A stretch of DNA of 28,186 bases, taken from a virus. The stretch is taken from positions 294,717 to 322,902 of the IMG/VR virus record IMGVR_UViG_3300035698_018106; one strand, given 5' to 3'. The stretch's first letter is position 1, and every line of letters begins with the position of its first letter. A program made the position numbers and the translations under genes. Shown one piece after another: positions 1,990-27,668 of the stretch. A model generated the notes under the pieces. It saw only the letters and a program-made list of their open reading frames with translations, was not told the DNA's origin and did no database searches.

Positions 1990-2066
1990 AAGAATTGGTT
2001 AAATTAACCAATTAAATCATCAATTAAAAGCTTTTCAATAAAATAATTGTTAAGATTTTGTTAAAA
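1990..2066 (-). promoter_or_regulatory. promoter/operator of the OmpR-like regulator gene: 21-bp perfect palindrome AATTGGTTAAATTAACCAATT plus TGTTAA-N5-TGTTAA
   Basis: palindrome at 1993-2013 holds the cassette core element AACCAA(T/A) in both orientations; TGTTAA copies at 2048 and 2059. Confidence 0.4.
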
Positions 2067-2078
2067 ACTATTTATTCA

Positions 2079-2690
2079 TTAAGTTTTGCCCTCTAGTTCC
2101 ATCTTCTTTTTTAATTCTTGTAATATATTTAGGTCTCCAAATGTAGATGATTTCTTTTTATCTACTCTCTTTTTTATTTCTTTTACTTTTTGTTTATCAT
2201 TATTATCTAATGCAGAATTCTCAGTAAAATGAGAAAAAACAGTATCTCGTTTCATTTGATTTAATTGATAATTGATATTTTTATCACCATTTAATAATCC
2301 TGATGATGTTAAGTCTAATATATCTGTTGTACATTGAAAGCATAAGCATGTATCTGTTTTTTCACCTGTAAATGCCTGTACTTTATCAACACCTATAGCT
2401 TTAACAAATGGATTTTCTTCTCTTGTAGTAGTCTCTCCATTAATATTTTTACGTAAGTTTGCTATGAAATCTTTAGAAATAGAACCTTGATTATTTTGAA
2501 TAGAAGCAAACGCCCCTTCGATATCGAATAATTTCTGGCCACATATATTACATATATGTTTCTGGTCTTTTTTAAATTCCCATAATTTTTGTGTTTTATT
2601 TACAGGCAAGTATGCTTTTATTAAATGATTAACAAATCCTCTTGATTTAGGATCATCATACAATTCTTGTATTTTTGTCATTTTTGTCAT
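2079..2690 (-). CDS. hypothetical protein; start probably at the second Met (2681)
   Basis: 203 aa ORF; N-terminus is MTKMTK created by a 9-bp tandem duplication; overlaps the upstream gene. Confidence 0.5.
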   Translation of the reverse strand: MTKMTKIQELYDDPKSRGFVNHLIKAYLPVNKTQKLWEFKKDQKHICNICGQKLFDIEGAFASIQNNQGSISKDFIANLRKNINGETTTREENPFVKAIGVDKVQAFTGEKTDTCLCFQCTTDILDLTSSGLLNGDKNINYQLNQMKRDTVFSHFTENSALDNNDKQKVKEIKKRVDKKKSSTFGDLNILQELKKKMELEGKT

Positions 2691-3135
2691 TTTTAAATAG
2701 TTTAATAAAAAAATCTCTAGTTTTATACATTATAAATAAAAGTAATGAAATTTTCTTTTCTGGCTCAGTATGATTAATAATTTTATGTACAAGACATCTA
2801 CTATCTATGTGTCGGTATTTAGTGCCGTAAGAATCCATATTATCCATTCCACCACATGTACATTTAGGAACCTTCCACCAATAATGATAATTACTATTTT
2901 TCTTATAACCCCATAATTCTTGTTGAAAATATTCAATTTTTTCAACTTGTCTGGCTAATTTCTTTAACTCGATTGTATCATCGGTTTTTGACATTTCTTC
3001 TTTAACTGTATAAAGAGAAACATGTGATAACCTAAGAGCTTCAATATTATCTTTTGATACTTTTTTAATCTTAATTAATTTTTTATTAAGGGTGCATATA
3101 AGCTTCCCATTAGGTAATTTTACGTCTAAATTCAT
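2656..3135 (-). CDS. hypothetical Cys/His-containing protein
   Basis: 159 aa ORF with CTCGG...H..CLVH cluster; perfect 8-bp hairpin 4 nt upstream of its ATG. Confidence 0.5.
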   Translation of the reverse strand: MNLDVKLPNGKLICTLNKKLIKIKKVSKDNIEALRLSHVSLYTVKEEMSKTDDTIELKKLARQVEKIEYFQQELWGYKKNSNYHYWWKVPKCTCGGMDNMDSYGTKYRHIDSRCLVHKIINHTEPEKKISLLLFIMYKTRDFFIKLFKNDKNDKNTRIV

Positions 3136-3372
3136 AATCTATTTTTACTATATTATGAAAAATAGACGAATTAGTTTTAAATTTATTTTAATTCCTTTAG
3201 TGTATTAAATGCGTAATCTATTATATTCTTTAGCAATACTAAGTTCAACTACATAATTGTCTTTATACGTTTTAACTGCGTCTAATATTGTTACAAAGCT
3301 TAAAGCAATATCTATAATAGCACTTACATGGTCTTCATCAAATCCATCATTAATAAAATCATCAAATATTTT

Positions 3373-3675
3373 TTATTTTGGTGTTATTTTAGATTCAATA
3401 GATGTTTTAAGTTTTAAATTAATACGATTATTAATTTCATCTAATAAAACTGCATCATATAGTTCTAATGTATTTAATATAGTGGTTTTAAATTTTACAT
3501 CATTAATTGCATTAATATGTTTTGCTGTTCGGACAAATTTTCTTTTTTGAATATTGTTTAAATTGTTATTTGCGCTTTGTAACTCAATAGAAACATATTT
3601 TATAGACTTATTGTTTTCTAAACATCTTGCATTTAATATCTCTTTTGATATCTCTTTTAAATCACTATTTTTCAT
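3373..3675 (-). CDS. hypothetical protein
   Basis: 100 aa ORF, ATG start, unidirectional array. Confidence 0.5.
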   Translation of the reverse strand: MKNSDLKEISKEILNARCLENNKSIKYVSIELQSANNNLNNIQKRKFVRTAKHINAINDVKFKTTILNTLELYDAVLLDEINNRINLKLKTSIESKITPK

Positions 3676-3680
3676 AATTA

Positions 3681-3947
3681 TTATTTCTTAAGTTTGGAAA
3701 TATCTACAGGAAATAATTTCATGGGCTTTACCGAAACACTTTTTGTATGTTCCTTAAATGTTGGATTATGCAGCCATAAACCACTTGATACAGAATACAC
3801 TTTTAATGATACTTTTCCTGTTGGAGTTGTTTTGATTGATTTACCTATAGTAACAGTTGTCACACCATTATTATCAGTTGAATATCCATAATAGTTATCC
3901 ATTTGAATAAGATTTCCTAAACCATCATTTTTGTTAATATCACTCAT
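3681..3947 (-). CDS. hypothetical protein
   Basis: 88 aa ORF, ATG start, 5-nt gap to the upstream gene. Confidence 0.45.
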   Translation of the reverse strand: MSDINKNDGLGNLIQMDNYYGYSTDNNGVTTVTIGKSIKTTPTGKVSLKVYSVSSGLWLHNPTFKEHTKSVSVKPMKLFPVDISKLKK

Positions 3948-3949
3948 AA

Positions 3950-4270
3950 TTAAAGTTGTTTTGTTTTTACTTCTGTAACATGTCTACATTTTTTTCTAAA
4001 TCCAAAACCTGCACAATCACAATTCCAATATATACCATCAAATGTAACATTATATGAAGATTTTCCATTAGAAGAACTAATAATAGTAGAAATAAGGTGT
4101 GCAGGTTCTTTTTCTCTAATAGGAAGATCTCTAGTCCAATGATTATAAACATCATTTAATGTTGTCATTGATGGCACAACATGCCATCCAGGCATAATAT
4201 ATTTTATACCAGAGATCACAACTAATCCTGGTGGTAAAAAAGATGATATTTTAAAATCTTTAGCTAACAT
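3950..4270 (-). CDS. SWIM-type zinc-finger protein
   Basis: C-terminal WNCDCAGFGFRKKCRHV fits the SWIM CxCxnCxH signature; 106 aa. Confidence 0.5.
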   Translation of the reverse strand: MLAKDFKISSFLPPGLVVISGIKYIMPGWHVVPSMTTLNDVYNHWTRDLPIREKEPAHLISTIISSSNGKSSYNVTFDGIYWNCDCAGFGFRKKCRHVTEVKTKQL

Positions 4271-4527
4271 TATAATGTGTGAACTATTAATTTAAATTCT
4301 TCTCCTTTAATACTTCTATATTCACAATGACAAACTACATCATCAGTGTTTTTATATGCTTTATAGAAATCAAATTTAGTTCTATCTTTTTCTAAGCCAT
4401 TTATAATAATAGTAGGAGGATATAATTTTCCCCACTGCAAATCGCTATAGTGTATAAGAAGTGTTTTTGAATTCTCTAGTAACGTTATATTACCACCTTT
4501 TTTATATCCTAAGGTTTGTGGTTTCAT
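4270..4527 (-). CDS. hypothetical protein
   Basis: 85 aa ORF; a degenerate promoter cassette lies upstream (4555-4618). Confidence 0.45.
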   Translation of the reverse strand: MKPQTLGYKKGGNITLLENSKTLLIHYSDLQWGKLYPPTIIINGLEKDRTKFDFYKAYKNTDDVVCHCEYRSIKGEEFKLIVHTL

Positions 4528-4554
4528 TTAAATATAGTTTTATTTTAAATTAAA

Positions 4555-4618
4555 GATTAAATATATCCAATTTAATTGAAACAGAAAAATAATTCTTAAT
4601 ATATTTTAACATTATTTA
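4555..4618 (-). promoter_or_regulatory. degenerate copy of the promoter cassette
   Basis: TAAATATATCCAATTTAATTGAAACAGAAAAATAATTCTTAATATATTTTAACATTATTT upstream of 4270-4527. Confidence 0.3.
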
Positions 4619-5351: not shown

Positions 5352-5385
5352 AACTAAAAAAGTCGAGACTAAAAAATCTCGGCTT
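5352..5385 (-). terminator. intrinsic-terminator-like hairpin + T-run (minus sense AAGCCGAGA-loop-TCTCGACTT then TTTTTTAGTTA)
   Basis: 9-bp stem with one mismatch, 9 nt after the NTase gene stop; run of 6 T in the gene sense. Confidence 0.5.
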
Positions 5386-7106: not shown

Positions 7107-7472
7107 TTATTGAATGTTATGTTTTAATAATAATTCTTTTGCTTCTTTTAGTCTTTTTTGTAATCCCGGATCGTTTATAACAGGAGCCGCTTTTTTCTTC
7201 ATACTAGCTATAGTTTTTCTTCCAAGTTGTTCAAGTTCTTTAGCATCTTGCTTTAAAACTCCTTTAACATCTACACCTTCAAAAGAAGAAGCATATGTGT
7301 GTGATACATCAATAGAAGCATCTGTAAGTGCTTCACTAAATTTAGTACCATCTTCCATTTCAGCATCCATTAATGCAGAAGCCATGGCTCCACCAACAAC
7401 TACAACTAGTCCAACTATTATAAAGAAAATAGTTCCTTTTAAAACGAATCCAATAAGTTTAATTAAAAACAT
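7107..7472 (-). CDS. membrane-anchored protein (N-terminal TM helix)
   Basis: 121 aa; IFFIIVGLVVVVGGAMASAL hydrophobic segment; first gene after cassette copy a. Confidence 0.5.
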   Translation of the reverse strand: MFLIKLIGFVLKGTIFFIIVGLVVVVGGAMASALMDAEMEDGTKFSEALTDASIDVSHTYASSFEGVDVKGVLKQDAKELEQLGRKTIASMKKKAAPVINDPGLQKRLKEAKELLLKHNIQ

Positions 7473-7490
7473 AATTTTTTAATTTTGATT

Positions 7491-7552
7491 TAAGTAAATA
7501 TAACCATTTACATCAACAGTAAAAAATTTTAAATGTTAAAAAATGTTAATTA
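7491..7552 (-). promoter_or_regulatory. promoter cassette copy a (core + TGTTAA direct repeat)
   Basis: TAAATATAACCATTTAC...AAATGTTAAAAAATGTTAA; about 20 nt upstream of ATG 7472. Confidence 0.5.
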
Positions 7553-9603: not shown

Positions 9604-10104
9604 TTAAAATGAATAATCATAATATTCTTGTTTAACACCAAATATGATATTTACTGTTGTCCATTCAATTTTAAGTTTTGTTAAACCTTCAATTAAAGAA
9701 TTAATAAATACCCCATTATATACTCCTCCTGCCTTACTGAATGCTTCATTTAGTAATTTACCATGATTTCCATATTTTTTATGAGCTTCATCAGTGAATG
9801 TAAATCCTACATGTTTCTTTTTCCACGAACCCCATTTATAATAAAGTGTAATTGTTCCTTCAATAAGTTCATTATATTCATAAGACTGTTGATCACTCAT
9901 ACCTAATTTGTCAACTCTTTTTGGGTGGTATCGTTGAATAACAACAGATTTTGATTTTTCATTTACATCAATAACTTCATATGCATGTCTATCAGAATGA
10001 AACAACATAGTAGCTCCTTTACCAATTTCTGGAATGGTTTGATTATTGCCCATCATCCAATTAACTAAAGAACCTGTTGTATTAAAAGTTAATGATTGCT
10101 TCAT
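9604..10104 (-). CDS. hypothetical protein (166 aa from Met-14; the track ATG at 10143 lies inside the promoter core)
   Basis: the 10143 ATG is the ATGG of the conserved core ATTTGGTTATATTTA; the next ATG (10102-10104) restores the usual core-to-ATG spacing. Confidence 0.45.
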   Translation of the reverse strand: MKQSLTFNTTGSLVNWMMGNNQTIPEIGKGATMLFHSDRHAYEVIDVNEKSKSVVIQRYHPKRVDKLGMSDQQSYEYNELIEGTITLYYKWGSWKKKHVGFTFTDEAHKKYGNHGKLLNEAFSKAGGVYNGVFINSLIEGLTKLKIEWTTVNIIFGVKQEYYDYSF

Positions 10105-10120: not shown

Positions 10121-10190
10121 TTATAATAGTTAAATATAACCATTTACTATAAGAGTAAAAAATCTGAAATGTTAATAAATGTTAAAATTA
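10121..10190 (-). promoter_or_regulatory. promoter cassette copy b
   Basis: TAAATATAACCATTTACTATAAGAGTAAAAAATCTGAAATGTTAATAAATGTTAAAA. Confidence 0.5.
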
Positions 10191-10196: not shown

Positions 10197-10228
10197 CTAA
10201 AAAATCGACTATCTCTAGAGATAGTCGA
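10197..10228 (-). terminator. intrinsic-terminator-like hairpin + T-run (24-nt perfect palindrome TCGACTATCTCTAGAGATAGTCGA then TTTTTTAGTTA)
   Basis: 11-bp perfect stem; identical TTTTTTAGTTA tail as the 5352-5385 hairpin; just upstream of cassette b. Confidence 0.5.
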
Positions 10229-10614: not shown

Positions 10615-10764
10615 TTAATTTAATTGTTTAACATCTAATTCATACATTTTTGTATAAAAAATAATTTTATCTTCCTTAGACAATGCATCAATTGCATCTT
10701 TCATAAAATCCATTAAATTTTGACAAGATTTAACTGTCGCGCTTTTAAAATTTCCTAGTTCCAT
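10615..10764 (-). CDS. small protein (49 aa, MELGNFKSATVKSCQNLMDFMKDAIDALSKEDKIIFYTKMYELDVKQLN)
   Basis: hand-translated; the only gene here with a strong SD-like GGAGGAGGAGAT before its ATG. Confidence 0.35.
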   Translation of the reverse strand: MELGNFKSATVKSCQNLMDFMKDAIDALSKEDKIIFYTKMYELDVKQLN

Positions 10765-10790: not shown

Positions 10791-10860
10791 TAATTATAGT
10801 ATAAATATAACCATTTACTTTAAGAGTAGAAAATATTAAATGTTAAAAAATGTTAAAATT
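10791..10860 (-). promoter_or_regulatory. promoter cassette copy c
   Basis: ATAAATATAACCATTTACTTTAAGAGTAGAAAATATTAAATGTTAAAAAATGTTAAAA; the stop of 10853-11794 sits inside the second TGTTAA. Confidence 0.5.
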
Positions 10861-11794
10861 CAATTTCTCCTACAATCGTTTTATTGCTCCATCCTCCAAT
10901 ATTAACAATTGAAGTTTCTAACTTACATCTAAAGTTTTCGTTTACAAACTCATATGCCTTGGAATTAATATTTTCTTTTGTATTTGCTAAGTATATACCA
11001 GTATGACTATCTTTTTGTATTATAATATCAGTTTCAACTGGATGAACATAGTGGAATGATAATTCAGGGGATGTTACAGGTATTTGATTGTTTTTATAGT
11101 AAGAAGAATTATAATTGCGATGATTTTTAGATTTATAAATCATTTCTTTAATTATTTCTTTATTATTAAATAGATTTGAATCATCATATAAATCTATTAA
11201 ATCTTTAATTCTTTTATTAGAAATAGGGAAAGATAAAATATCCCATAATTTACCTTCTTTACAAGCAAAAAAAGCACGCCGAGGTGTTTCTAATGTTAGA
11301 TGATAAGTATAATCATGATTGTATTTAACTATAATATTTTTTTGATACCAATTACCAAGATAAACCATTTCTAATCCATCTTTACATTGAGCACCTTTAT
11401 ACCAATGGCCAACTATGGCTTTAGAAATAGGAATAATATCACCCTTTTTATTTTCTAATTCTTCTTCTTTATAAAGAAGATCAATATATTCTGTATCTAA
11501 CGTCCTAATCAATTGCATTTGATGGTCAACAATATTTTCAACAAATGTAATTTCATCTTCAATTACACCATGTGTAATTGATAATCTAGTAAGTGGTAAT
11601 TGATCAAAATCTACCCAAATTTGTCTTGGTAAATATTCATGATCTATTAGAAATCCTAATTTACTATAATCAATAATTTTTAAACCTGCCATTGGTTCAT
11701 TATTAAAAGGTATTGTACCTTTACCACCAGACATTCTAATTCCGCTGCCAATGTAAGCTTTTTTAAGTAATTTTATACTACATGTATTTTCCAT
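10853..11794 (-). CDS. hypothetical protein (313 aa)
   Basis: longest ORF in the window, ATG start, preceded by a type-2 cassette (11798-11835). Confidence 0.55.
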   Translation of the reverse strand: MENTCSIKLLKKAYIGSGIRMSGGKGTIPFNNEPMAGLKIIDYSKLGFLIDHEYLPRQIWVDFDQLPLTRLSITHGVIEDEITFVENIVDHQMQLIRTLDTEYIDLLYKEEELENKKGDIIPISKAIVGHWYKGAQCKDGLEMVYLGNWYQKNIIVKYNHDYTYHLTLETPRRAFFACKEGKLWDILSFPISNKRIKDLIDLYDDSNLFNNKEIIKEMIYKSKNHRNYNSSYYKNNQIPVTSPELSFHYVHPVETDIIIQKDSHTGIYLANTKENINSKAYEFVNENFRCKLETSIVNIGGWSNKTIVGEIEF

Positions 11795-11797
11795 AAT

Positions 11798-11835
11798 TCA
11801 AATATAACCAAAATAAGTGGGATAAAAAATAATTA
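11798..11835 (-). promoter_or_regulatory. type-2 cassette (core + GGGATAAAAAA)
   Basis: AAATATAACCAAAATAAGTGGGATAAAAAATAAT upstream of ATG 11794; related copies at 26856-26890 and partly 22455-22490. Confidence 0.4.
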
Positions 11836-12270
11836 TTGTATAATTAAAGAATCTGTAAAAATATTATTATCTCCTGATGATGTTGTAATGGTTACATCAT
11901 CAGATTTTTTTATTTTAATTCTCTGTTTTTCTATTTCTTTAATACGTAATTTATATTTTAATATATTTGGAGTAAGACCTCCATATAATGTTAGTTCTAT
12001 AGGAACAAATCTTAATGAATCCCATATATGTTTAGTTGGTACTATATATTCTAAATATAAATCTGGATAATTTACTTTAAAATTAGCCAAACCATCAGGA
12101 ATTCTAGTATAATCACTGGAATAATACTTCCCATCATATTTATTAGCTAAAAATAAAGCAAAGGCTTTATTATATTTATCAACATACCTATAGCCTTGGT
12201 TATATTGTGTATTGTGTTCACATGAAACTAATAATAACAATGCTACAATAAAAATAATTAATTTTTTCAT
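11833..12270 (-). CDS. putative lipoprotein
   Basis: MKKLIIFIVALLLLVSC: n-region, h-region, lipobox LVSC; 4-nt overlap with the upstream gene. Confidence 0.5.
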   Translation of the reverse strand: MKKLIIFIVALLLLVSCEHNTQYNQGYRYVDKYNKAFALFLANKYDGKYYSSDYTRIPDGLANFKVNYPDLYLEYIVPTKHIWDSLRFVPIELTLYGGLTPNILKYKLRIKEIEKQRIKIKKSDDVTITTSSGDNNIFTDSLIIQ

Positions 12271-13673: not shown

Positions 13674-14036
13674 TTATTTATGAATGTCAAACTTAATAGA
13701 CTGAATTTCGTTTAATTCTGTTTGCATATTATTTGTCTTAATATATAATGCTTTTTCATAGTGATGTGCTATATCAATAAAATATCTGCTTTCCATAAAT
13801 TCATTTAAATCAAATCTATATTCCAAACAACCAACTGCCTCATCAGATGTATTAGTATTAATAAAGTTACCAATACCGCCAACCCAAATACATGAATCTC
13901 CTGCCACCATACAAAATTCATTTTCAATTAATTTTGTAGCAATTGTTTCCCAACCTGGATATTCATCATTCTTAAAAAATTGGCTTAAAATGAAGCTTTT
14001 TTGATATTGTGTCAAAATATTTGTTTTAGTTTTCAT
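13674..14036 (-). CDS. hypothetical protein (120 aa)
   Basis: ATG start; 4-nt overlap with the upstream gene. Confidence 0.45.
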   Translation of the reverse strand: MKTKTNILTQYQKSFILSQFFKNDEYPGWETIATKLIENEFCMVAGDSCIWVGGIGNFINTNTSDEAVGCLEYRFDLNEFMESRYFIDIAHHYEKALYIKTNNMQTELNEIQSIKFDIHK

Positions 14037-14589: not shown

Positions 14590-14658
14590 TAATTATAGTT
14601 AAATATAACCAAATTTACATTAAGAGAACAATTGCAAATGTTAATAAATGTTAATTGT
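14590..14658 (-). promoter_or_regulatory. promoter cassette copy d
   Basis: TAAATATAACCAAATTTACATTAAGAGAACAATTGCAAATGTTAATAAATGTTAA. Confidence 0.5.
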
Positions 14659-15693: not shown

Positions 15694-15759
15694 AATAAAA
15701 TTTAATTTGAATACATATTATTAAATTGAATATTTCCATTAACAAATCTTTTTATTTAA

Positions 15760-15830
15760 ATTTGTAATAGTTAAATATAACCAAATTTACAATACTAGAA
15801 CAATTCTAAATGTTAAAAAATGTTAAACAT
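15760..15830 (-). promoter_or_regulatory. promoter cassette copy e
   Basis: TTAAATATAACCAAATTTACAATACTAGAACAATTCTAAATGTTAAAAAATGTTAAA. Confidence 0.5.
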
Positions 15831-17442: not shown

Positions 17443-17616
17443 TTAATTATTTTGTTTTAAAATTGCAACTTCTTCACTTAAATCTTGCATTTCACGAGCC
17501 ATAGACTTTTCTTCAATATTTGATAGAATATAACCATCTCTATTTCCATTCAATACTTTATTAAGTCTGGATATTGTAGCTTCTTTTTCTATAATATTTT
17601 TATCTAAAGATGTCAT
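17443..17616 (-). CDS. small coiled-coil protein (57 aa, MTSLDKNIIEKEATISRLNKVLNGNRDGYILSNIEEKSMAREMQDLSEEVAILKQNN)
   Basis: hand-translated, below track cutoff; first ORF after cassette copy f. Confidence 0.3.
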   Translation of the reverse strand: MTSLDKNIIEKEATISRLNKVLNGNRDGYILSNIEEKSMAREMQDLSEEVAILKQNN

Positions 17617-17625: not shown

Positions 17626-17697
17626 TTTTTAATTTAGATAAAAATAACCAATTTTACTTATTAAGAACAATATTAAATGTTAATAAATGTTAAAATG
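17626..17697 (-). promoter_or_regulatory. promoter cassette copy f (core variant AAAAATAACCAATTTTAC)
   Basis: ...TTAAGAACAATATTAAATGTTAATAAATGTTAAAA. Confidence 0.45.
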
Positions 17698-18021: not shown

Positions 18022-18408
18022 TTATAAATAAGTATCATCAATATATTTCTTTTTTAATCTAATCCAATCCAACCGATCTTTTTCTTCTTTTTCAGTTTTT
18101 CTTTCTTCTTTTTTCTTTTCTTCTGCACGAATTAATTCAGCTTTTCGTTTTAATATTATATCACCAAAATACTTTTCAAAAAACTCAATAGGCTCATTGA
18201 TATCAGTTTTAACGATATCAAATCCTCCAAAATTTTCTCCACAACCAGTTAAATTATTTGATGTTGATACATAAATCAGATTGTTATCAATCTCATAATT
18301 ATCCATTGTCATACCCGTTCGGTTAATACTGGCATGAATTTCAGAAATTGACCATAGCTTTTCATGCAATTCAATATCGATTTTTTCGTATAATGCAATG
18401 TTTATCAT
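18022..18408 (-). CDS. hypothetical protein (128 aa from the first ATG; the track's 18483 start is a TTG inside cassette g)
   Basis: the track N-terminus translates the promoter cassette; ATG 18406-18408 lies about 45 nt past the core. Confidence 0.45.
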   Translation of the reverse strand: MINIALYEKIDIELHEKLWSISEIHASINRTGMTMDNYEIDNNLIYVSTSNNLTGCGENFGGFDIVKTDINEPIEFFEKYFGDIILKRKAELIRAEEKKKEERKTEKEEKDRLDWIRLKKKYIDDTYL

Positions 18409-18444
18409 ATTAATATATTTTAAATGGTTTTGCAAATATTTTTT

Positions 18445-18508
18445 AGTTAAGTAAATATATCCAATTTTACTTAATAAGAACAATATTAAATGTTAAAAAA
18501 TGTTAATT
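18445..18508 (-). promoter_or_regulatory. promoter cassette copy g (core variant TAAATATATCCAATTTTAC)
   Basis: ...TAATAAGAACAATATTAAATGTTAAAAAATGTTAA. Confidence 0.45.
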
Positions 18509-18806: not shown

Positions 18807-19055
18807 TTAAACTACTTTAATACGTTTGCCACAACTACATATCAATTCTTGCTTCACTTCATTAAAAACATAATTACCCTTCCCGCAGTCACATAATGAT
18901 ACTTCACCATTCTCATTATCTCCTTTTATAATTGCGTTGGATATCTTATAATAATCATCTCTATCTAAATATTCTATTATCTCTCCATCTGATAATGTAC
19001 CAAATTTAGAAAAGATTCCAAAAATTTCATGAATATCAACATCGTCTAATTTCAT
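18807..19055 (-). CDS. small zinc-ribbon-like protein
   Basis: C-terminal CDCGKG...CSCGKR pairs; 82 aa. Confidence 0.4.
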   Translation of the reverse strand: MKLDDVDIHEIFGIFSKFGTLSDGEIIEYLDRDDYYKISNAIIKGDNENGEVSLCDCGKGNYVFNEVKQELICSCGKRIKVV

Positions 19056-19378
19056 ACTTTATTTTTTAATATAGTTATTCCCCATTCTTCATCTTCATAA
19101 AGAAAATTAAACTTATCTGTTATAGAATGAGTACACATAAAATTAGTATACACTTTACCTTCATTTATACACTTTTGAATATCCTCTAATTCCGACTTTC
19201 CAAAATCTTCAGATTCTCCATAAAATGTAAAAGTATCAATATATTTGTCAAATATAAACCATCCACCTCCAGATACTTTCTCTTTATCAAAAGCTAATTC
19301 TTTATGATAATTACACTTGCCTATAATCAAATTTCCATCCTCTATAATAAACTTTGAAAATAATTCTGTTATGTCCAT
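19052..19378 (-). CDS. hypothetical protein (108 aa)
   Basis: first gene after cassette copy h. Confidence 0.45.
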   Translation of the reverse strand: MDITELFSKFIIEDGNLIIGKCNYHKELAFDKEKVSGGGWFIFDKYIDTFTFYGESEDFGKSELEDIQKCINEGKVYTNFMCTHSITDKFNFLYEDEEWGITILKNKV

Positions 19379-19391
19379 ATATTTTTTTATT

Positions 19392-19455
19392 TAGTTAAAT
19401 ATAACCAAATTTACTATAAGAGAACAATTTTAAATGTTAAAAAATGTTAAAAATT
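19392..19455 (-). promoter_or_regulatory. promoter cassette copy h
   Basis: TTAAATATAACCAAATTTACTATAAGAGAACAATTTTAAATGTTAAAAAATGTTAAAA. Confidence 0.5.
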
Positions 19456-20271
19456 AGTATATTGTTTAAGGGCAGCTTTAATAGTATCCATTGAAAAAGA
19501 CTTTCCATCAATCTCAATACTTGTATCACTTCTATTAACAACTTCTTCTGATGTTATTTTCTTAAATAAACTATTATTAACATAACATATTGTATTTTCA
19601 TTATAATGAAGTGCTAATGCGCAAATATTGTTAGTTTGATTCTTAACATACTTAATTGATGTAGGTGATTGAGTAATAGCTGCCATACAAATTTCTTCAG
19701 ATTGTTGTTTAACATATTGTAACATCTGTCCATTTATCTTTACTGCTACTAAACAAACTTTATCAAAATGTATATGAATATACTTTAATGCCGTAGGTGA
19801 TTGAGTAACTGCAACCATACAAATTCTAAGTGATTGATTTCTAACATATTGTACTGCATTCCCATTTTGTTCAACTGCTGCTAAACATATCTCCTCAGTT
19901 TGCTGATGTACTAAACATAATAGTAATCCATCTTGTTTAACGGCGGCCAAACAATTATCAAGTGTTTGTATAATAACATACTTAAAAGCATTACTATTTT
20001 GTTTAATAGCTTCTAAACAAATCTCTTCAGTTTGTTTCTTTACATATTGTAAAGCATTTGTATCTTTTCTAACAGCTGCTAAACAAATCTCTTCAGTTTG
20101 CTCATCTACAAACGTCAATGCTCCGCTATTCGTCAGAACAGCCATCATAGCCTCTCCACCAGTCAAATCACATTTTGGACCAGCATATATATAATGCTTA
20201 TCTCTATAATTTTTTAAGTGCTTAGGGCAATTTCTATTAAAAGTATCTTGCAAATGAGTTTGTTTTAACAT
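19447..20271 (-). CDS. 22-aa tandem-repeat protein (DUF4116-like), paralog 1
   Basis: about 9 repeats of EQTEEICLAAV[KR]QNG.ALQYVK plus the conserved tail IEIDGKSFSMDTIKAALKQYTNF; its stop lies inside cassette h. Confidence 0.6.
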   Translation of the reverse strand: MLKQTHLQDTFNRNCPKHLKNYRDKHYIYAGPKCDLTGGEAMMAVLTNSGALTFVDEQTEEICLAAVRKDTNALQYVKKQTEEICLEAIKQNSNAFKYVIIQTLDNCLAAVKQDGLLLCLVHQQTEEICLAAVEQNGNAVQYVRNQSLRICMVAVTQSPTALKYIHIHFDKVCLVAVKINGQMLQYVKQQSEEICMAAITQSPTSIKYVKNQTNNICALALHYNENTICYVNNSLFKKITSEEVVNRSDTSIEIDGKSFSMDTIKAALKQYTNF

Positions 20272-20288: not shown

Positions 20289-20618
20289 TTAAATTAACAC
20301 AAAAGCTAAACATTTTTCAGCTAATGGTAAAAGCTCTTCTAAATGTGGTAATCTATATGAATAATAATTACATTCGTTACCATTAAATTTCTTTATTTCG
20401 TTCTTATATGTATTAAGCAATGTCTCTATATTTTCAATATAAGTTGTTAATGCATCTATTACAGCATCAATATGACTATCACATTTAAATTTTTGATTTG
20501 TTGATGATGTTAAAAAATCAATACTAACTTTTGCCCCATACCTACTAAAGGTAGATTTTATAACAATACTATCTTTAGAAGAATGCTTACTCAAAATTTC
20601 AACTATTTTTTCTATCAT
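20289..20618 (-). CDS. hypothetical protein (109 aa)
   Basis: first gene after cassette copy i. Confidence 0.45.
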   Translation of the reverse strand: MIEKIVEILSKHSSKDSIVIKSTFSRYGAKVSIDFLTSSTNQKFKCDSHIDAVIDALTTYIENIETLLNTYKNEIKKFNGNECNYYSYRLPHLEELLPLAEKCLAFVLI

Positions 20619-20627: not shown

Positions 20628-20698
20628 ATTTTATAATAGTTAAATATAACCAAATTTACTATAAGAGAACAATATTAAATGTTAAAAAATGTTAAAAA
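20628..20698 (-). promoter_or_regulatory. promoter cassette copy i
   Basis: TTAAATATAACCAAATTTACTATAAGAGAACAATATTAAATGTTAAAAAATGTTAAAA (near-identical to h). Confidence 0.5.
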
Positions 20699-21309
20699 CT
20701 AATATATTGCTTAAGTGCAGCTTTAATAGTATCCTTTGAAAAAGTCTTACCATCAATCTCAATCTCATTATTTTCTTCTTTAAACATATCTTCCTTTACA
20801 TATTGTAATGCACGCACATCTTGTTTAACAGCTTCTAAACATATCTCTTCAGTTTGCTCATTAACATAACGTAAAGCATGACCATTTTGTCTAACAGCTT
20901 TTAAACATATCTCTGGAGTTTGTTCTAATACATATTGTAATACAAATCCATTTTGTTTAATTGCTACTAAACACATCTCTTCAGTTTGCTCTTTTACATA
21001 TTGTAATGCATCCCCATCTTGTTTAACTGCTTCTAAACATATCGCTTCAGTTTGCTCTTTAACATAACGTAATGCATGACCATTTTGTTTAACTCCTGCT
21101 AAACATATCTCTGGTGTTTGCACCCTTACATACTGTAATGCATGACCTTTTTGTCTAACTGCTTCTAAACATATCTTTTCAGTTTGCTCATTAACATAAT
21201 GTAATACATAACCATCTTCTCTAACAGCTTCTAACGCTGCATCACCAGTTAAATTACATTTATCTTCTAACTTATCATAATCACTTTTATAATCTTTCAA
21301 ATCTTTCAT
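20692..21309 (-). CDS. 22-aa tandem-repeat protein (DUF4116-like), paralog 2 (start at MKDLKDYKSDYDKL; the track's 21333 start is a TTG)
   Basis: about 8 repeats and the tail IEIDGKTFSKDTIKAALKQYISF; the N-terminus matches paralog 3; its stop lies inside cassette i. Confidence 0.6.
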   Translation of the reverse strand: MKDLKDYKSDYDKLEDKCNLTGDAALEAVREDGYVLHYVNEQTEKICLEAVRQKGHALQYVRVQTPEICLAGVKQNGHALRYVKEQTEAICLEAVKQDGDALQYVKEQTEEMCLVAIKQNGFVLQYVLEQTPEICLKAVRQNGHALRYVNEQTEEICLEAVKQDVRALQYVKEDMFKEENNEIEIDGKTFSKDTIKAALKQYISF

Positions 21310-21360
21310 TATCCTTTTTTTCATTATATTCAAATATATCTATAATCTATCACAATATAA

Positions 21361-21387
21361 AATCTAAAATGTTAAAAGATGTTATAG
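21361..21387 (-). promoter_or_regulatory. partial cassette (direct repeat only, core replaced)
   Basis: AAAATGTTAAAAGATGTTATAG upstream of paralog 2; abuts the G-free island arm. Confidence 0.3.
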
Positions 21388-21603
21388 ATATCTCTTTACT
21401 CATCTCGTACACCCACTCTAACACCCTCTCAATCTCTCACTCTTCTACTTATATTACTACATCTCACTCTATATCATTCACTGTATTTCACTAAACTAAC
21501 TCTTCTAACTCCCTTACCCTCTCTCACATATTCCCTAACCTCGCGAGCTTCCCTACATTATCACAATAATTATTTTTATAATATAACATATAATATAAAC
21601 TAT

Positions 21604-21825: not shown

Positions 21826-22056
21826 AACCTTAAATTTTTTTATATTTTCTATATCTCTTTAATATTAATAATATATACAAATCACAAATAAATTCTAAAC
21901 AAATCACAAACAAATCCCTACAAAGTAATCCTGTCAGGGCTCAAACCTAATCAATCAAAACGGCGCGCCTCTATCTCGAAACTGCTGTCACCTTGAGATA
22001 GTTACAGATATATAATTTCGAGTATAAGATTCTCCCTGTTTCGCCCTGAGACATAT

Positions 22057-22077
22057 AATGTAACATATGTTACAAAA
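22057..22077. repeat. 21-bp element AATGTAACATATGTTACAAAA containing a 16-bp perfect palindrome, copy 1
   Basis: exact repeat of 22112-22132. Confidence 0.6.
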
Positions 22078-22111
22078 TTTACCTTATACGAACTGTGGGA
22101 ATGGTATTAAG

Positions 22112-22132
22112 AATGTAACATATGTTACAAAA
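22112..22132. repeat. 21-bp element AATGTAACATATGTTACAAAA, copy 2 (overlaps the stop codon of 22125-22379)
   Basis: exact repeat of 22057-22077, 55 bp apart. Confidence 0.6.
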
Positions 22133-22490: not shown

Positions 22491-23094
22491 AATGTGTGAT
22501 TAAATTAGATTTAATTTTATTTAGTTGTTTTAAAGTTATAGTTTTTGCGTTAGCTGTATATTCTTTGCGTATTAATATTTTTTGAGATTCTGGAAGTGTG
22601 TGATATGTTTCGCGTACACCGTGGTGGTATTTAACTATAGTAGATTCTTTCCACATAGTAGCTTTGAGGATATTATAGTATAGAGTTGAGATTATTTTCT
22701 TTTCAATTTTTGATAGGTTATATATTTGGTGTGTATTGCTCCATTTAACTAGTTTTTTATATGATAGAGGGAATTTATATTTTTCAAGTAGGTAGTTGAT
22801 AGTATGTGTGTGTGTAGTAAAGAAAGATATAGTATTGAGTTTTCTTGATTTGTTTCTTTGATTGTTGTATTTAGATTGGAGTTGTATATATTTTTCTTTA
22901 TTATTTTTTATATAGGTTTTAGTATAAGCTGCATCTTTAGCTTTATTGAGAGGGTTTGTTCTTCTTTTTTTAGTTTGTTCTTTGCTACAAAGTGAGCATC
23001 GAATTATATCTTTTTTTCCATAGTTGTAGATGTTATGGATAGTAATTACATTATGTTCAGAACAAAATTTAGATATTGTATTTATTTTAGCCAC
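22489..23094 (-). CDS. hypothetical Cys-cluster protein (N-terminal CSEHN...RCSLC), GTG start
   Basis: 201 aa ORF with GTG start (cac 23092-23094) and no in-frame ATG for about 150 codons; plus strand is almost C-free here. Confidence 0.4.
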   Translation of the reverse strand: MAKINTISKFCSEHNVITIHNIYNYGKKDIIRCSLCSKEQTKKRRTNPLNKAKDAAYTKTYIKNNKEKYIQLQSKYNNQRNKSRKLNTISFFTTHTHTINYLLEKYKFPLSYKKLVKWSNTHQIYNLSKIEKKIISTLYYNILKATMWKESTIVKYHHGVRETYHTLPESQKILIRKEYTANAKTITLKQLNKIKSNLITH

Positions 23095-23210
23095 AATTAA
23101 TTATTTAGAGGGTGCACGACTGATTAAATTTAGTATTAAAGATATAAGATAATATGTATATGATATATGAGTTGAAGAGATGATTGATAGAGTGATTGAG
23201 AGATATGATA

Positions 23211-23420
23211 TTAGTTAGTAGGTTGTTCCCAATCGATAGTACCTGTGATTACGAATTCTGTTTGGCAGTTATCGCAAGTCATTTCGGCGTAAGTTGTAGT
23301 ATCAAGAGAGTACATTGATTTGGTATCTTGTATAGATTTGTTTGTATTAGGGTTAGGTAGATAGATTGATGGGTTACCTGTTGCTCTTGTTTTGGTTGAA
23401 TTACAGTTTGGACATTTCAT
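23211..23420 (-). CDS. small zinc-ribbon protein
   Basis: CPNC...CDNC pairs; 69 aa. Confidence 0.4.
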   Translation of the reverse strand: MKCPNCNSTKTRATGNPSIYLPNPNTNKSIQDTKSMYSLDTTTYAEMTCDNCQTEFVITGTIDWEQPTN

Positions 23421-23723: not shown

Positions 23724-24248
23724 TTAGTTTTTAAGTTTAAATATTGTTTCATCGATATCAACAGATACAACTTCAAGACCTAGCATATTGACAATACATG
23801 AGTAGTATTTAGGTCTTCTAACAAAATCAACAAGAGCTTCATTATGTTCAGAACAGAATCCATGGAATATATTAACGAATCCTAGGAAGATATCATGATG
23901 AGGATCGAGTTGATGATCATTTCTGATATCAGAAAGCATGTTTAATACTTTAGTTTCTATATTAATTTTGCGTTCCGGATTAATATTGTTTAATGTAAAT
24001 ACATGTGATATAGTAATATGATTATAGTTAACATTGGCCATAGAATAAGACTCTATATTTTCAAGAGATTCTCCGTTATAGAGTTTAAAGTAAGCTCTAC
24101 AGTAGAGGTTATCTTCTAATTTATAGATTTTATGAGATACCCCATTATAGTGTGCAGTGCAATTAGGGTATAGATGTTTAAGATATCTAACAGTTTTACA
24201 ATCTCTTAATTCTTTAGAGATAATTATATTGATTTCTATTTCTTTCAT
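23724..24248 (-). CDS. hypothetical protein (174 aa)
   Basis: first gene after degenerate cassette k (AGTTAA-N4-AGTTAA). Confidence 0.45.
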   Translation of the reverse strand: MKEIEINIIISKELRDCKTVRYLKHLYPNCTAHYNGVSHKIYKLEDNLYCRAYFKLYNGESLENIESYSMANVNYNHITISHVFTLNNINPERKINIETKVLNMLSDIRNDHQLDPHHDIFLGFVNIFHGFCSEHNEALVDFVRRPKYYSCIVNMLGLEVVSVDIDETIFKLKN

Positions 24249-24267
24249 ATTTTTGAATTTGTATATT

Positions 24268-24326
24268 GTAAATATAATTAATATTACTATAACAGAAAAA
24301 TATTAAAAGTTAAATAAAGTTAAAAT
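24268..24326 (-). promoter_or_regulatory. degenerate cassette k (AGTTAA-N4-AGTTAA)
   Basis: AAATATAATTAATATTACTATAACAGAAAAATATTAAAAGTTAAATAAAGTTAAAA. Confidence 0.35.
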
Positions 24327-25294
24327 GATTTATTTACATCTATTTTTCTTTCAAAAGATAGTAAAGCGTTTTTAATATATTCATGAGGATATTCATTACC
24401 TTCGAAAATAATAGCAGATTGTTTTGGGAACATGTAATTATTAACATACATTAATGCTTTTATGTTTTGTTTAACAGCTCCTAAACATATCTCTTCAGTT
24501 TGTTCTTTAACATAACGTAATGTTTCTCCATCTTGTTTAACAGCAGCTAAACATATCTCTTCAGTTTGCTCTAATATATATTGTAATGTATTACCATTTT
24601 GTTTAACAGCTCTTAAACACATCTCTTCAGTTTGCTCATTAACAAATTGAAATGCATTACCATTTTGTTTAACTGCTTCTAAACATATTTCTTCAGTTTG
24701 CTTCTTAACATAACGTAATGCATAACCATTCTTTCTAACAGCAGCTAAACATATCTCTGGAGTTTGCTCATTTACAAAACGTAATGCATAACCATTCTTT
24801 CTAACAGCTTCCATACACATCTCCTCAGTTTGCTCAATTTGCTCATTAACATATTTTAATGCATAACCATTCTTTCTAACAGCTTCTAAACAAATCTCCT
24901 CAGTTTGCTCTTTAACATAGTATAATACAAATCCATGTTGTCTAACTACTTCTAAACATATCTTTTCAGTTTGTTCTTTAACAAATTGAAATGCATTACC
25001 AATTTCTTTAACTGCTTCTAAACATATCTCTTCAGTTTGTTCTTTAACATATTGTAATGCTAAACCATTCTTTCTAACAGCTTCCATACACATCTCCTCA
25101 GTTTGCTCATTTACAAAACGTAATGCTTCATTATGTTGTTTAACAGCTGCTAAACAAATCTCTGGAGTTTGTTCCTTAACAAATTGTAATGCGTTACCAT
25201 CTTGTTTAACAGCTTCTAACGCTTCTTCACCAGTTAAATTACACTTGTTCTTTAACTTATCATACTTACATTTATAATCTTTCAAATCTTTCAT
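24320..25294 (-). CDS. 22-aa tandem-repeat protein (DUF4116-like), paralog 3, longest (324 aa)
   Basis: about 12 repeats; divergent C-terminal tail; its stop lies inside cassette k; preceded by cassette l. Confidence 0.6.
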   Translation of the reverse strand: MKDLKDYKCKYDKLKNKCNLTGEEALEAVKQDGNALQFVKEQTPEICLAAVKQHNEALRFVNEQTEEMCMEAVRKNGLALQYVKEQTEEICLEAVKEIGNAFQFVKEQTEKICLEVVRQHGFVLYYVKEQTEEICLEAVRKNGYALKYVNEQIEQTEEMCMEAVRKNGYALRFVNEQTPEICLAAVRKNGYALRYVKKQTEEICLEAVKQNGNAFQFVNEQTEEMCLRAVKQNGNTLQYILEQTEEICLAAVKQDGETLRYVKEQTEEICLGAVKQNIKALMYVNNYMFPKQSAIIFEGNEYPHEYIKNALLSFERKIDVNKSF

Positions 25295-25310: not shown

Positions 25311-25380
25311 ATTTATAATAGTTAAATATAACCAAATAGGTTGATAATAAAAAATATTAAATGTTAAAAGATGTTAAAAA
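25311..25380 (-). promoter_or_regulatory. promoter cassette copy l
   Basis: TTAAATATAACCAAATAGG...AAAAAATATTAAATGTTAAAAGATGTTAAAA. Confidence 0.45.
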
Positions 25381-25802: not shown

Positions 25803-25810
25803 AATAATTT

Positions 25811-26080
25811 TTATTGTTTGTTAAAGAATTCAACAAGTTCTTCAGTATCCATTAAGTAATCTCCTTCACATATATAGATAGATTTAATATCATTTACATG
25901 AATGATAAATTCTCCACCGTACCACCACATTGTAATAGTGTGTGTATTTCTAGATCTTATTTTAGAGTTAATTGTTACTCTGCTTTCATTAGGATAAGCA
26001 TCAACAGCTATATTATCTCCAACTTTGATATCATTAAAATCAATTTTTTCCATAGTGTGTGATTTAGTCTTCGTTATCAT
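25811..26080 (-). CDS. hypothetical protein (89 aa)
   Basis: ATG start; 17-nt overlap with the upstream gene. Confidence 0.45.
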   Translation of the reverse strand: MITKTKSHTMEKIDFNDIKVGDNIAVDAYPNESRVTINSKIRSRNTHTITMWWYGGEFIIHVNDIKSIYICEGDYLMDTEELVEFFNKQ

Positions 26081-26318
26081 TGTTAATCCATTCCATAATA
26101 ATTTCTACATTCTCATCTCCAACAAAATCATGATTGATTTGGAAATTACCTGGACCTGAGACATCTATTAAAACGATACCATAAGGATCGCCAAAGGAGT
26201 TTTCCTTTTCATCTTCAACTAGTTGATTGAATTCTTCAATTGCAGATTCCTTGTAAGAATTGTCACCATAGAACTTAATGTTCGTATAATCCGCTGTATT
26301 AACTACGATTGCTAACAT
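26064..26318 (-). CDS. small acidic protein (84 aa)
   Basis: first gene after cassette copy m. Confidence 0.45.
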   Translation of the reverse strand: MLAIVVNTADYTNIKFYGDNSYKESAIEEFNQLVEDEKENSFGDPYGIVLIDVSGPGNFQINHDFVGDENVEIIMEWINNDNED

Positions 26319-26334: not shown

Positions 26335-26403
26335 ATTTATAATAGTTAAATATAACTAATTTTACTATAAGAGAGCAATGTTAAATGTTAAAAGTTGTTA
26401 AAT
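26335..26403 (-). promoter_or_regulatory. promoter cassette copy m
   Basis: TTAAATATAACTAATTTTACTATAAGAGAGCAATGTTAAATGTTAAAAGTTGTTAAA. Confidence 0.45.
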
Positions 26404-26469
26404 GTATATAGTGACATTTAGTGATATGTATTTAAAGAGATGTATATACATATTAACCAGACTGTAGTG

Positions 26470-26506
26470 ATAAAAAAATCCTATCTAGAGTTACCCAGAT
26501 AGGATT
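26470..26506 (-). terminator. intrinsic-terminator-like hairpin + T-run (AATCCTATCT-loop-AGATAGGATT then TTTTTTT)
   Basis: 10-bp perfect stem 20 nt after the membrane-protein gene stop; 7 T in the gene sense. Confidence 0.5.
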
Positions 26507-26526
26507 TTGAATTTTTTCTTATAATA

Positions 26527-26820
26527 TTATTTCTTTGGTTTTGTTATAGATTGTCTACTTAGTATACCAATGAGCCATATTAATCCAATACAGACTAAAT
26601 AAGGCAGACTTGATGGTAGAGTACCATTAGAGACTAAAGTTGGTAACACAGTAGGTATTACAAATGGCCATAGAAAGAATAGAATAATTCCTGAAATAAT
26701 AGATTTGAATAAAATACCGAAAATGGATAAACATACTCCCCAAATAATACCTAGTCCTATTGCCAATGTCCCCCAAATAAAACTAAAAAACATGCCTAAA
26801 AGTCCTACAATTGTTCTCAT
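26527..26820 (-). CDS. small polytopic membrane protein (3-4 TM helices)
   Basis: 97 aa, almost entirely hydrophobic helices with a KPKK tail; preceded by a type-2 cassette; terminator hairpin 20 nt downstream. Confidence 0.5.
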   Translation of the reverse strand: MRTIVGLLGMFFSFIWGTLAIGLGIIWGVCLSIFGILFKSIISGIILFFLWPFVIPTVLPTLVSNGTLPSSLPYLVCIGLIWLIGILSRQSITKPKK

Positions 26821-26855
26821 ATACGTTTGTTTTAATTATTAATTATAAATAGAGA

Positions 26856-26890
26856 TTAAAAATAACCAAAAAGATTGGGATAAAAAAGTT
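26856..26890 (-). promoter_or_regulatory. type-2 cassette (core + GGGATAAAAAA)
   Basis: AAAAATAACCAAAAAGATTGGGATAAAAAAGTTT about 40 nt upstream of ATG 26820. Confidence 0.4.
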
Positions 26891-27182
26891 TAATTTAAGT
26901 TTTAATAAGTTATTTTTAAGTGCCGGAGAATTCAATAGAGTAGAAATGATATAGTAATATAAGTAGAAAATTGCCCATTCATCCCTTAGGGGGATATATC
27001 ACATTCAGTTTTTAGTTGATTGGTATTATGTATTTTAGAAAAAGACATAAAAAAACTCCTACTAATCTATATAAAGATTAATAGGAGAAAAAACTAGGTA
27101 AATATTGCAACGATTAATTTTATTTTTGTCCACCTTTTAATAGAGCATCGAATCGAACGATATTTGGTGATAGTTGTTAACC

Positions 27183-27204
27183 AGGGGAATTACGCCCCAC
27201 CCCT
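27183..27204 (-). terminator. GC-rich hairpin (AGGGG-loop-CCCCT) about 8 nt after a gene stop
   Basis: the only G/C-only stem in the window; no T-run. Confidence 0.2.
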
Positions 27205-27211
27205 ATATCTT

Positions 27212-27580
27212 TTATACTTTGAAAGATGTTCTTTGTTTATATTTAGAAATATGTTCTGTTGCAATTATTAAAGCTATATCTAAATTATTAGGAATTGCAG
27301 TTTTCTTTGGATTGCCTTTATGAAAAGCAAATGAGGTTGATCTTACTTCTTGTCTTGCCCATAAATCTCCTTTACCTCTTGATAAGTTACCTTTGGTAAT
27401 ATTATAAACATATACCATTGGGTAGGGATTAGTAGTTATTTGGATAAAAGTATAGATTAAACCAAATCTAGCATCTGATCTTTCATATATTTTAAAAGTA
27501 GAAGTTTTCATAATAAATGTTCCTACCTTAGTATAATCTTCATATTGTTGTAAAGACTTTTTTACTTTAATTTTTTCCAT
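27212..27580 (-). CDS. hypothetical protein (122 aa)
   Basis: first gene after cassette copy n. Confidence 0.45.
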   Translation of the reverse strand: MEKIKVKKSLQQYEDYTKVGTFIMKTSTFKIYERSDARFGLIYTFIQITTNPYPMVYVYNITKGNLSRGKGDLWARQEVRSTSFAFHKGNPKKTAIPNNLDIALIIATEHISKYKQRTSFKV

Positions 27581-27604
27581 GATGTATATTGTTTAAATTT
27601 GTAT

Positions 27605-27668
27605 AAGATAAATATAACCATTTGCTTTAACAGTAAAAAATATTAAATGTTAAAATATGTTAAATGTT
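27605..27668 (-). promoter_or_regulatory. promoter cassette copy n
   Basis: ATAAATATAACCATTTGCTTTAACAGTAAAAAATATTAAATGTTAAAATATGTTAAA. Confidence 0.45.

Follow-up and report, generated by a model that had tools for sequence, protein, structure and literature searches.

A repeated promoter-like cassette with a TTAACA tandem and an RprY-like candidate activator in a large uncultured phage predicted to infect Bacteroidota

The stretch of DNA considered here, referred to as the window, comprises 28,186 nucleotides of the IMG/VR virus record IMGVR_UViG_3300035698_018106 (positions 294,717 to 322,902). Its G+C content is 27%, and it is crowded with small open reading frames (ORFs) on the minus strand, in front of which a cassette of about 65 bp recurs, reading in gene sense TTAACA-N4-TTAACATTT-N(~24)-(T)TTGGT-TATATTTA-AC. 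A preliminary description of the window claimed that this cassette is reused before at least 14 transcription units. Indeed, 14 cassettes in the same orientation as the genes that follow them, together with one variant before the gene of a putative regulator (1271-1972), are found, all of them in intergenic DNA (Table 1). Each cassette spans p-64 to p, where p is the plus-strand coordinate of the first T of the distal TTAACA, and index positions are counted from that T. Twelve copies that had been listed (cassettes 1 to 3 and 6 to 14) are present at the coordinates given, 12 of 12; of four others called degenerate, those with p at 2064, 21385 and 24323 are real, whereas the one near 4558 consists of the core and a single half-site only. 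No copy lies inside a coding sequence; in five, the gene upstream ends on the TAA contained in the first TTAACA, which serves as its stop codon. The distance from the first T to the ATG is 62-99 nt in 13 of the 14 copies and 134 nt at 15826, so that the earlier statement that every copy stands 10-60 nt before an ATG is right for most copies and not for all. The reported absence of a Shine-Dalgarno sequence holds except after the copy at 10856, where a strong GGAGGAGGAG run precedes the 49-aa ORF, which is unusual in this otherwise Shine-Dalgarno-less region.

Table 1. Cassettes, regulator promoter and regulator gene in the window (plus-strand coordinates)
Feature	Position	Strand	Elements	Neighbouring sequence
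Cassette 1	27599..27663	-	TTAACA-N4-TTAACA; -7-like box TATATTTA 27609-27616	before ORF 27212-27580
Cassette 2	26337..26401	-	-7-like box 26347-26354	before ORF 26064-26318; hairpin and T-run ~60 nt upstream
Cassette 3	25313..25377	-	box 25323-25330	before DUF4116 gene 24320-25294
Cassette 4	24259..24323	-	degenerate TTAACT-N4-TTAACT; box 24269-24276	before ORF 23724-24248
Cassette 5	21321..21385	-	degenerate ATAACA-N4-TTAACA; canonical box TATATTTG 21331-21338	before DUF4116 gene 20692-21324
Cassette 6	20631..20695	-	box 20641-20648	before ORF 20289-20618; first TTAACA overlaps stop codon of upstream gene
Cassette 7	19386..19450	-	box 19396-19403	before ORF 19052-19378; overlaps upstream stop codon
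Cassette 8	18442..18506	-	box 18452-18459	before ORF 18022-18408
Cassette 9	17629..17693	-	box TATTTTTA 17639-17646	before ORF 17443-17616
Cassette 10	15762..15826	-	box 15772-15779	then 12-codon ORF (region 15700-15762), then ORF 15529-15693
Cassette 11	14590..14654	-	box 14600-14607	before ORF 14033-14581
Cassette 12	10792..10856	-	box 10802-10809	before 49-aa ORF 10615-10764 with Shine-Dalgarno-like run GGAGGAGGAG
Cassette 13	10121..10185	-	box 10131-10138	before ORF 9604-10104; intrinsic-terminator-like hairpin 10205-10228 just upstream
Cassette 14	7485..7549	-	box 7495-7502	before ORF 7107-7472
Regulator's own promoter	1973..2064	-	TTAACA-N5-TTAACA, 11-bp phase; degenerate core GGTTAATTTAAC from index 59	
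Candidate regulator	1271..1972	-	233 aa; pseudo-receiver and OmpR/PhoB winged-helix domain	closest curated family RprY

The recurrence of the cassette far exceeds chance. Its core 15-mer, at up to two mismatches, was found 19 times against 1.2 expected, with none of 100 shuffled sequences reaching 19, and 17 of the 19 matches lie on one strand. The tandem TGTTAA-N4-TGTTAA, at up to one mismatch, was found 16 times against 1.24 expected; both motifs are approximately 13-16 times commoner than in shuffled sequence. As had also been noted, the half-sites are 10 bp apart at 14 promoters (TTAACA-N4-TTAACA) and 11 bp apart at the regulator's own (TTAACA-N5-TTAACA), a helical-turn direct repeat such as is found at OmpR/PhoB-type sites. 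A box TA[ACT][ACT]TTT[GA] starts exactly at index 48 in all 14 copies with 10-bp phasing, and the spacer falls into two subtypes, ATTGTTCTCTTATAGTAAATTTGG and ATTTTTTACTCTTAAAGTAAATGG. At the regulator's own promoter, by a count made by hand, the degenerate core lies one helical turn further from the tandem than in the cassettes.

Regarding the source of the DNA, a megablast search with 25 kb of the window gave no match among cultured phages. When phages were searched by BLAST with a consensus cassette, the sole match was to part of the core, in Chryseobacterium phage MA9V-1, and the 50 kb examined of that phage contain no tandem. Several proteins of the window match phage families (AAA_33/PHROG ATPase, nucleotidyltransferase and HD phosphohydrolase), and related metagenomic and IMG/VR contigs, 130-405 kb long, carry genes for RNA ligase, RNase H and 5'-3' exonuclease. 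The related contigs also encode PorP_SprF, CHU_C and SprB; the source is therefore, judged by gene content, a large uncultured phage with a Bacteroidota host, and a reading as a giant eukaryotic virus is wrong. A promoter of the mimivirus type was likewise rejected, as its motif AAAATTGA occurs 9 times against 9.0 expected, in agreement with the preliminary description. Scans with Rfam (gathering threshold) and ARAGORN returned no RNA family or tRNA match.

Promoters recognized by the primary sigma factor of Bacteroidota contain a -7 box, TAnnTTTG, spanning -12 to -5, and a weaker and variable TTTG at -33 (PMC6847099, PMC9723704), and A-rich leaders without a Shine-Dalgarno sequence are typical of this group (PMC6847099). 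The cassette box TATATTTA agrees with this -7 box at seven of eight positions; the deviation is at -5, where A stands in 12-13 of 14 copies and G only in the copy at 21385. Relatives carry at the same index the canonical TATATTTG or TAYCTTTG, both of which end in G. At 21 nt upstream of the box (about -36 to -33) subtype 1 has ATTG and subtype 2 has TTTT, and 72 independent phage promoters of this architecture have TTTG(G) at index 24-28, which was not part of the search pattern. The cassettes are most likely promoters for the RNA polymerase of the Bacteroidota host carrying its primary, sigma-A-type sigma factor. As the box at index 48-55 would span -12 to -5, the predicted transcription start lies near index 60, which would give leaders of about 13-40 nt, A-rich and without a Shine-Dalgarno sequence. 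In the fixed place of the box before genes and in such leaders the cassette resembles known Bacteroidota sigma-A promoters, whereas it differs from them by the A at -5, the weak -33 region, an extra conserved TTTGG before the box and an obligatory TTAACA tandem at -59 to -44. Another candidate for the -7 box, TAAATTTG (index 38), was rejected, as only subtype-1 copies have it and relatives lack it. The reading as a promoter combined with a regulator site, put forward in the preliminary description, is supported by the strictly intergenic and gene-oriented placement, by the fixed distance to the -7 box, by an architecture that is kept in relatives with unconserved spacers, and by co-occurrence with OmpR/PhoB-type regulator homologues. 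The core is most likely the -7 box of host sigma-A and not a private site. As to the length conserved, which the preliminary description considered more than a polymerase needs, phage promoters with long conserved stretches are known from T4 (its early promoters) and from the promoter-early stem-loop elements (PeSLs) of T4-type phages.

Two other identities of the core promoter have to be weighed at this point. The core TTGGTTATATTTAAC might be read by a sigma factor or RNA polymerase that the phage itself encodes and so define a private promoter class, as it exceeds the host box (TTTGGT upstream, AAC downstream), has A instead of G at -5 in most copies, and recurs in a second promoter class, TTTTTTATCCCA. 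This is highly improbable, since relatives hold the canonical host boxes TATATTTG and TAYCTTTG at that position and neither the window nor the loci examined, which are partial genomes, showed a gene for a sigma factor or an RNA polymerase. A promoter of the sigma-70 type, with the proximal TTAACA as -35 and TATAGT, 16-18 nt downstream, as -10, is barely credible: a consensus scan gave 10/12 for several copies, but overall there is no excess of such sites (163, with 165 expected), TATAGT is not conserved, as subtype-2 copies and all distant relatives lack it, and the host belongs to Bacteroidota, where sigma-A works without -35/-10 elements (PMC6847099). The sigma-70 promoter was rejected on these grounds.

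At its C-terminus the candidate regulator has a winged-helix domain of the Pfam family Trans_reg_C (E = 1.7e-11, which passes the curated cut-off). An AlphaFold2 model (pLDDT 83) matches full-length PrrA, KdpE, DrrB, VanR and HP1043, which include atypical, phosphorylation-independent OmpR/PhoB regulators, and a sequence-profile search of the PDB agrees. The receiver half has no Pfam Response_reg match despite its receiver-like fold, and the active-site residues D, D, T and K after beta1, beta3, beta4 and beta5 are not conserved in 23 homologues; as the phospho-acceptor residues are lost, the protein should need no kinase. The recognition-helix segment RS[LM]DV[FY][VI]T[HY]LR is nearly invariant in the family, which numbers about 55 proteins, all from metagenomes. 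The best NCBIfam match is RprY for all 23 aligned members (best E 1e-17 versus 6e-12 for the next family), but the score against the RprY equivalog NF051850, 55 bits versus a cut-off of 370, indicates that the protein is not RprY itself. It is probably an RprY-like protein whose receiver function has been lost. A tblastn search of cultured phages gave no match to the regulator and only weak generic matches to a distant homologue, and among GTDB representative genomes there was no close bacterial homologue, only generic regulators from Arsenicibacter. A scan of IMG/VR with the single protein returned nothing, and homologues emerged when an alignment was used as the query. In the literature searched, nothing relevant was found on phage-encoded OmpR-type regulators.

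The tandem and the regulator family are closely linked. Most of approximately 25 regulator homologues, down to 30% identity, have at least two TTAACA repeats upstream of their own gene, and such repeats precede even a stand-alone 105-aa winged helix-turn-helix (wHTH) homologue in a 360-kb contig. The repeats before regulator genes are usually 11-bp phased, sometimes three or four in number, and are typically followed by the canonical TATATTTG box. Exact tandems occur 76 times in 27 regulator-bearing phage loci (520 kb), where 1.0 would be expected, a 76-fold enrichment, and four cultured Bacteroidota phages (50 kb each, 200 kb in total), in which no such regulator was found, contain none. The geometry is also shared: the -7 box stands at index 48 in 28 of 44 N4 tandems and at 49 in three more, and nine promoters of the relative L035 keep the index-48 geometry with spacers that share no sequence with the window. 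At N5 tandems the box is found at 49, 59-61 and 70-71, that is, in helical-turn steps, and the promoter of the regulator in the window belongs to the 59 class. Such conserved geometry fits activation that depends on the face of the helix and, as far as sequence comparison can tell, is hard to explain by duplication alone. A cassette stands in the relative L005 at the same place as cassette 14, between the AAA_33 and LigD_N genes, and the cassettes are therefore considered stable regulatory features.

These data also bear on the view that the cassettes are strong constitutive early promoters, in which the TTAACATTTT repeats would serve as an UP element for the alpha subunits of RNA polymerase with no transcription factor involved. 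Escherichia coli UP elements have two subsites, which the position at -59 to -40 and the T-tracts of the cassette resemble, and T4 early promoters are conserved over about 60 bp, a similar length. However, TTAACA with its invariant C is conserved across lineages whereas the T-tracts are not (variants TTAACAGAATTTTAACAG and TTAACAATTATTAACA), the tandem is missing from 200 kb of other Bacteroidota phages, and its association with wHTH regulator genes, in phage and host alike, is specific; this view is thus improbable. In the literature searched, nothing relevant was found on TTAACA in Bacteroides promoters or on a Bacteroidetes UP element.

The association with regulator genes extends to bacteria. 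All seven bacterial rprXY operons examined carry one TTAACA-N4-TTAACA just upstream of rprX (bacterial contigs L302-L305, L209, L230 and L275). Three of these loci came from a pattern scan of metagenomes, with the tandem in the divergent region before the operon of the histidine kinase and RprY, and four further rprY loci were sampled blind to the motif, each of them containing exactly one tandem in 8.7 kb. At three of the host loci the tandem stands before a divergent gene as well, and the spacing there, index 48/49, is that of the phage promoters. The divergent small genes at three loci encode products with a hydrophobic N-terminus, that of L275 being rich in Lys and Asp, and in L302-L304 groES-groEL follows immediately downstream of rprY. 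RprY has been reported to bind its own promoter (PMC5706477). Together with the occurrence of the tandem at 7/7 rprXY operons, this makes TTAACA-N4-TTAACA a strong candidate, on sequence grounds, for the RprY box. The literature searched contained neither a published RprY recognition sequence nor a description of TTAACA-N4-TTAACA as a cis-element of RprX/RprY.

Based on these observations, it appears rather probable that the phage RprY-like protein acts independently of phosphorylation, binds the cassettes at about -59 to -40 and activates the host RNA polymerase there. The half-sites, at about -59 to -54 and -49 to -44, would be the site for a head-to-tail dimer of the 1271-1972 protein, and the bound dimer, just upstream of the weak -33 region, would recruit RNA polymerase, so that at least 14 transcription units could be switched on together. 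Its action would be independent of a kinase, the phospho-acceptor residues of the receiver being lost, and the 11-bp-phased tandem of its own promoter, one helical turn further upstream, suggests autoregulation. We infer binding, the position of the transcription start and activation over repression. Activation is favoured because the site adjoins the core elements without overlapping them and because host promoters of the same architecture have no -33 element; the weak -33 region of the cassettes and the A at -5, where G is nearly invariant, are features of the activator-dependent type.

Several observations weigh against this proposal. More than 100 other IMG/VR stretches, among the matches listed, carry TTAACA-N4-TTAACA-N31/32-TAHHTTTG, some of them with 5-9 tandems, and their contigs yielded no regulator homologue. 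Part of these matches must be due to chance, tens being expected by an estimate that assumes a base composition and a collection size. The element can therefore exist without the phage protein, perhaps served by host RprY, which could act on this phage as well. In addition, the closest IMG/VR relative, L011, has a regulator promoter of the other type, TTTTTTATCCCA, without a tandem; half-site and recognition helix are both nearly invariant, so that there is no covariation to compare; groES, a published RprY target, has no tandem in the three loci checked; and a site at -59 to -40 could equally serve repression or anti-activation.

The same observations lend some weight to the possibility that the tandems are boxes for host RprY, through which the phage plugs into the RprX/RprY stress pathway of the host, the phage protein then being a competitor, an antagonist or a shut-off factor. 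The tandem at 7/7 rprXY operons, the same geometry at divergent host genes and the many phage contigs that show the architecture without a detectable phage regulator are all in line with it, and cyanophage Pho boxes bound by host PhoB provide a precedent (PMC10976474). Nevertheless, regulator homologues mostly have the repeats before their own genes, as expected of a dedicated circuit, and a pseudo-receiver joined to an intact wHTH is the usual build of atypical regulators that are constitutively active, for example HP1043, one of the fold matches. Taken by itself this possibility seems unlikely, though well short of far-fetched, and it is compatible with activation by the phage protein. A joint model may tentatively be drawn, though we would sooner doubt than assert it: a tandem 31 nt before the -7 box would be the cis-element of the widespread RprX/RprY system, many Bacteroidota phages would be wired into it, and one lineage of large phages would have captured and "unplugged" the regulator, through loss of the phospho-acceptor or retention of a stand-alone wHTH domain alone, so that it would fire such promoters independently of host signalling.

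OmpR F and C sites and Pho boxes consist of direct repeats with a period of 10-11 bp, just upstream of the -35 region or in its place, and are bound by head-to-tail winged-helix dimers. The cassette repeats are similar in their helical-turn spacing and in their place just upstream of the -33 region, whereas the putative binder is here encoded by a phage, has no phospho-acceptor and would work with Bacteroidota sigma-A. Compared with RprX/RprY, the phage protein is closest to the RprY family and the same tandem stands at 7/7 rprXY operons, but its score of 55 versus 370 bits, its pseudo-receiver and its lack of a kinase partner set it apart. MotA of phage T4 is an activator that redirects the host polymerase to promoters with a host-type downstream element and a poor upstream element (PMC2988021). 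T4 middle promoters are thus like the arrangement proposed here in combining a phage activator, the host polymerase and a weak upstream element; MotA differs in its fold, in its box at -30, where the cassette site lies at about -50, and in its need for AsiA for sigma remodelling. We know of no AsiA-like factor for the cassette system. Cyanophage promoters carry Pho boxes bound by host PhoB (PMC10976474), and the cassettes would, like them, be phage promoters with the cis-element of a host OmpR/PhoB-family response regulator, although the cyanophages rely on the regulator of the host for a few auxiliary genes and this phage would employ a regulator of its own at 14 or more promoters. By analogy with these systems, the cassettes most likely work as T4 MotA-type middle promoters or PhoB-box phage promoters do, with a kinase-independent factor derived from a response regulator and with Bacteroidota sigma-A. 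The transcriptional programmes of Bacteroidota phages are almost unknown, and no activator-dependent promoter class was found for them in the literature searched. If the proposal is true, the cassette and the 1271-1972 protein would be a defined phage promoter-activator pair for the unusual sigma factor of Bacteroidota, potentially an orthogonal expression switch for engineering Bacteroides and Flavobacterium, and an example of a phage that has made a kinase-independent transcription factor out of a host two-component regulator. The tandem would provide a testable recognition sequence for RprY, a conserved regulator of stress and virulence, and the combination of tandem and -7 box at fixed spacing a signature for annotating transcription units in uncultured large phages.

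Alternatively, the cassettes might in the main be modules for recombination, or dispersed repeats, that shuffle genes in the manner of the PeSLs of T4-type phages, with promoter activity as a secondary property. Four paralogues with DUF4116 repeats (19447-20271, 20692-21333, 24320-25294 and 27734-28066) are each flanked by cassettes, and in three of them homology covers the 3' ends of the genes and the next cassette; this suggests, at the level of sequence, a PeSL-like duplication of gene-plus-cassette modules (PMC2839356, PMC4122927). PeSLs are likewise long regulatory cassettes reused between the small genes of a variable early region, and paralogous gene-plus-cassette modules are common to both (PMC2839356, PMC4122927). 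PeSLs combine a promoter with a stem-loop, however, whereas a consensus structure of 12 aligned cassettes contains no base pairs and hence no stem-loop, and separate hairpins stand upstream of a few copies only. Moreover, neither terminal inverted repeats nor target-site duplications are visible in the cassette alignment, the orientation of the cassettes follows the genes in 100% of cases, the geometry is kept in distant phages with diverged sequence, and the L005 cassette occupies the same place. Recombination as the primary role of the cassettes, as distinct from duplication of modules that contain them, is accordingly very doubtful. Intrinsic-terminator-like hairpins with T-runs were noted at 10205-10228, 5364-5381, 27056-27087 and ~26450-26490, directly upstream of some promoters; these form terminator-promoter pairs, and most cassettes have no upstream hairpin.

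Further elements were observed in the window and in relatives. The core of the cassettes also belongs to the second promoter class, TTTTTTTATCCCA-N10-TTTTGGTTATATTTR, where TTTTTTTATCCCA stands about 11 nt before the -7 box and replaces the TTAACA tandem; this class is found on the minus strand of the window (11790-11840 and 26830-26890), in L005 (3422 and 16837) and in L011 (8119 and 12290). Distant relatives contain another element, comprising in this order TTAACA-N5-TTAACA, AAAAC.TTT, CCATATAAT(T/A)AGTAC.TAAG and GC-rich sequence, without the usual -7 box (L015 7277, L019 5615, L028 6433, L031 7714, L033 7285 and L034 5586; also L012 18838, L014 3624 and L029 6657, the last two on the minus strand). 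At L014 11680, L017 11937, L021 11941 and L002 2324 (minus strand), a full cassette is followed by a GC-rich, structured-looking sequence (CCTTAAGAAAATGGCCTAGCTCC...), with no ORF, and the cassettes at these places may drive a non-coding RNA. In the metagenome contigs L185, L201, L240, L273 and L280, two or three tandem copies of TTTTTAACAC come before a T-rich stretch and then a -7 box; this motif may belong to another regulon with TTAAC-type half-sites. Two further contigs, L194 and L218 (JACCDH011219844.1 and JACCDW010762921.1), contain an unrelated phage-like array with 4-6 TTAACA-N4-TTAACA promoters in approximately 4.5 kb of small ORFs, having the canonical -33 TTTGG and -7 TATATTTG; no regulator gene lies within the stretch available.

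Within the window, a 16-bp palindrome, TGTAACATATGTTACA, occurs in two exact copies 55 bp apart (22059-22074 and 22114-22129; 0 expected), where a non-coding stretch of 300 bp (21826-22124) starts. This pair could be the operator of a different regulator. RNA folding of the 300-bp stretch is not significant (z = -0.9), and Rfam gave no match to it. Two non-coding stretches at ~21390-21600 and 23090-23215 are, in gene sense, one strongly purine-rich (GA/GT) and the other pyrimidine-rich, and the GC skew changes sign from -0.46 at 20-22 kb to +0.33 at 22-24 kb.

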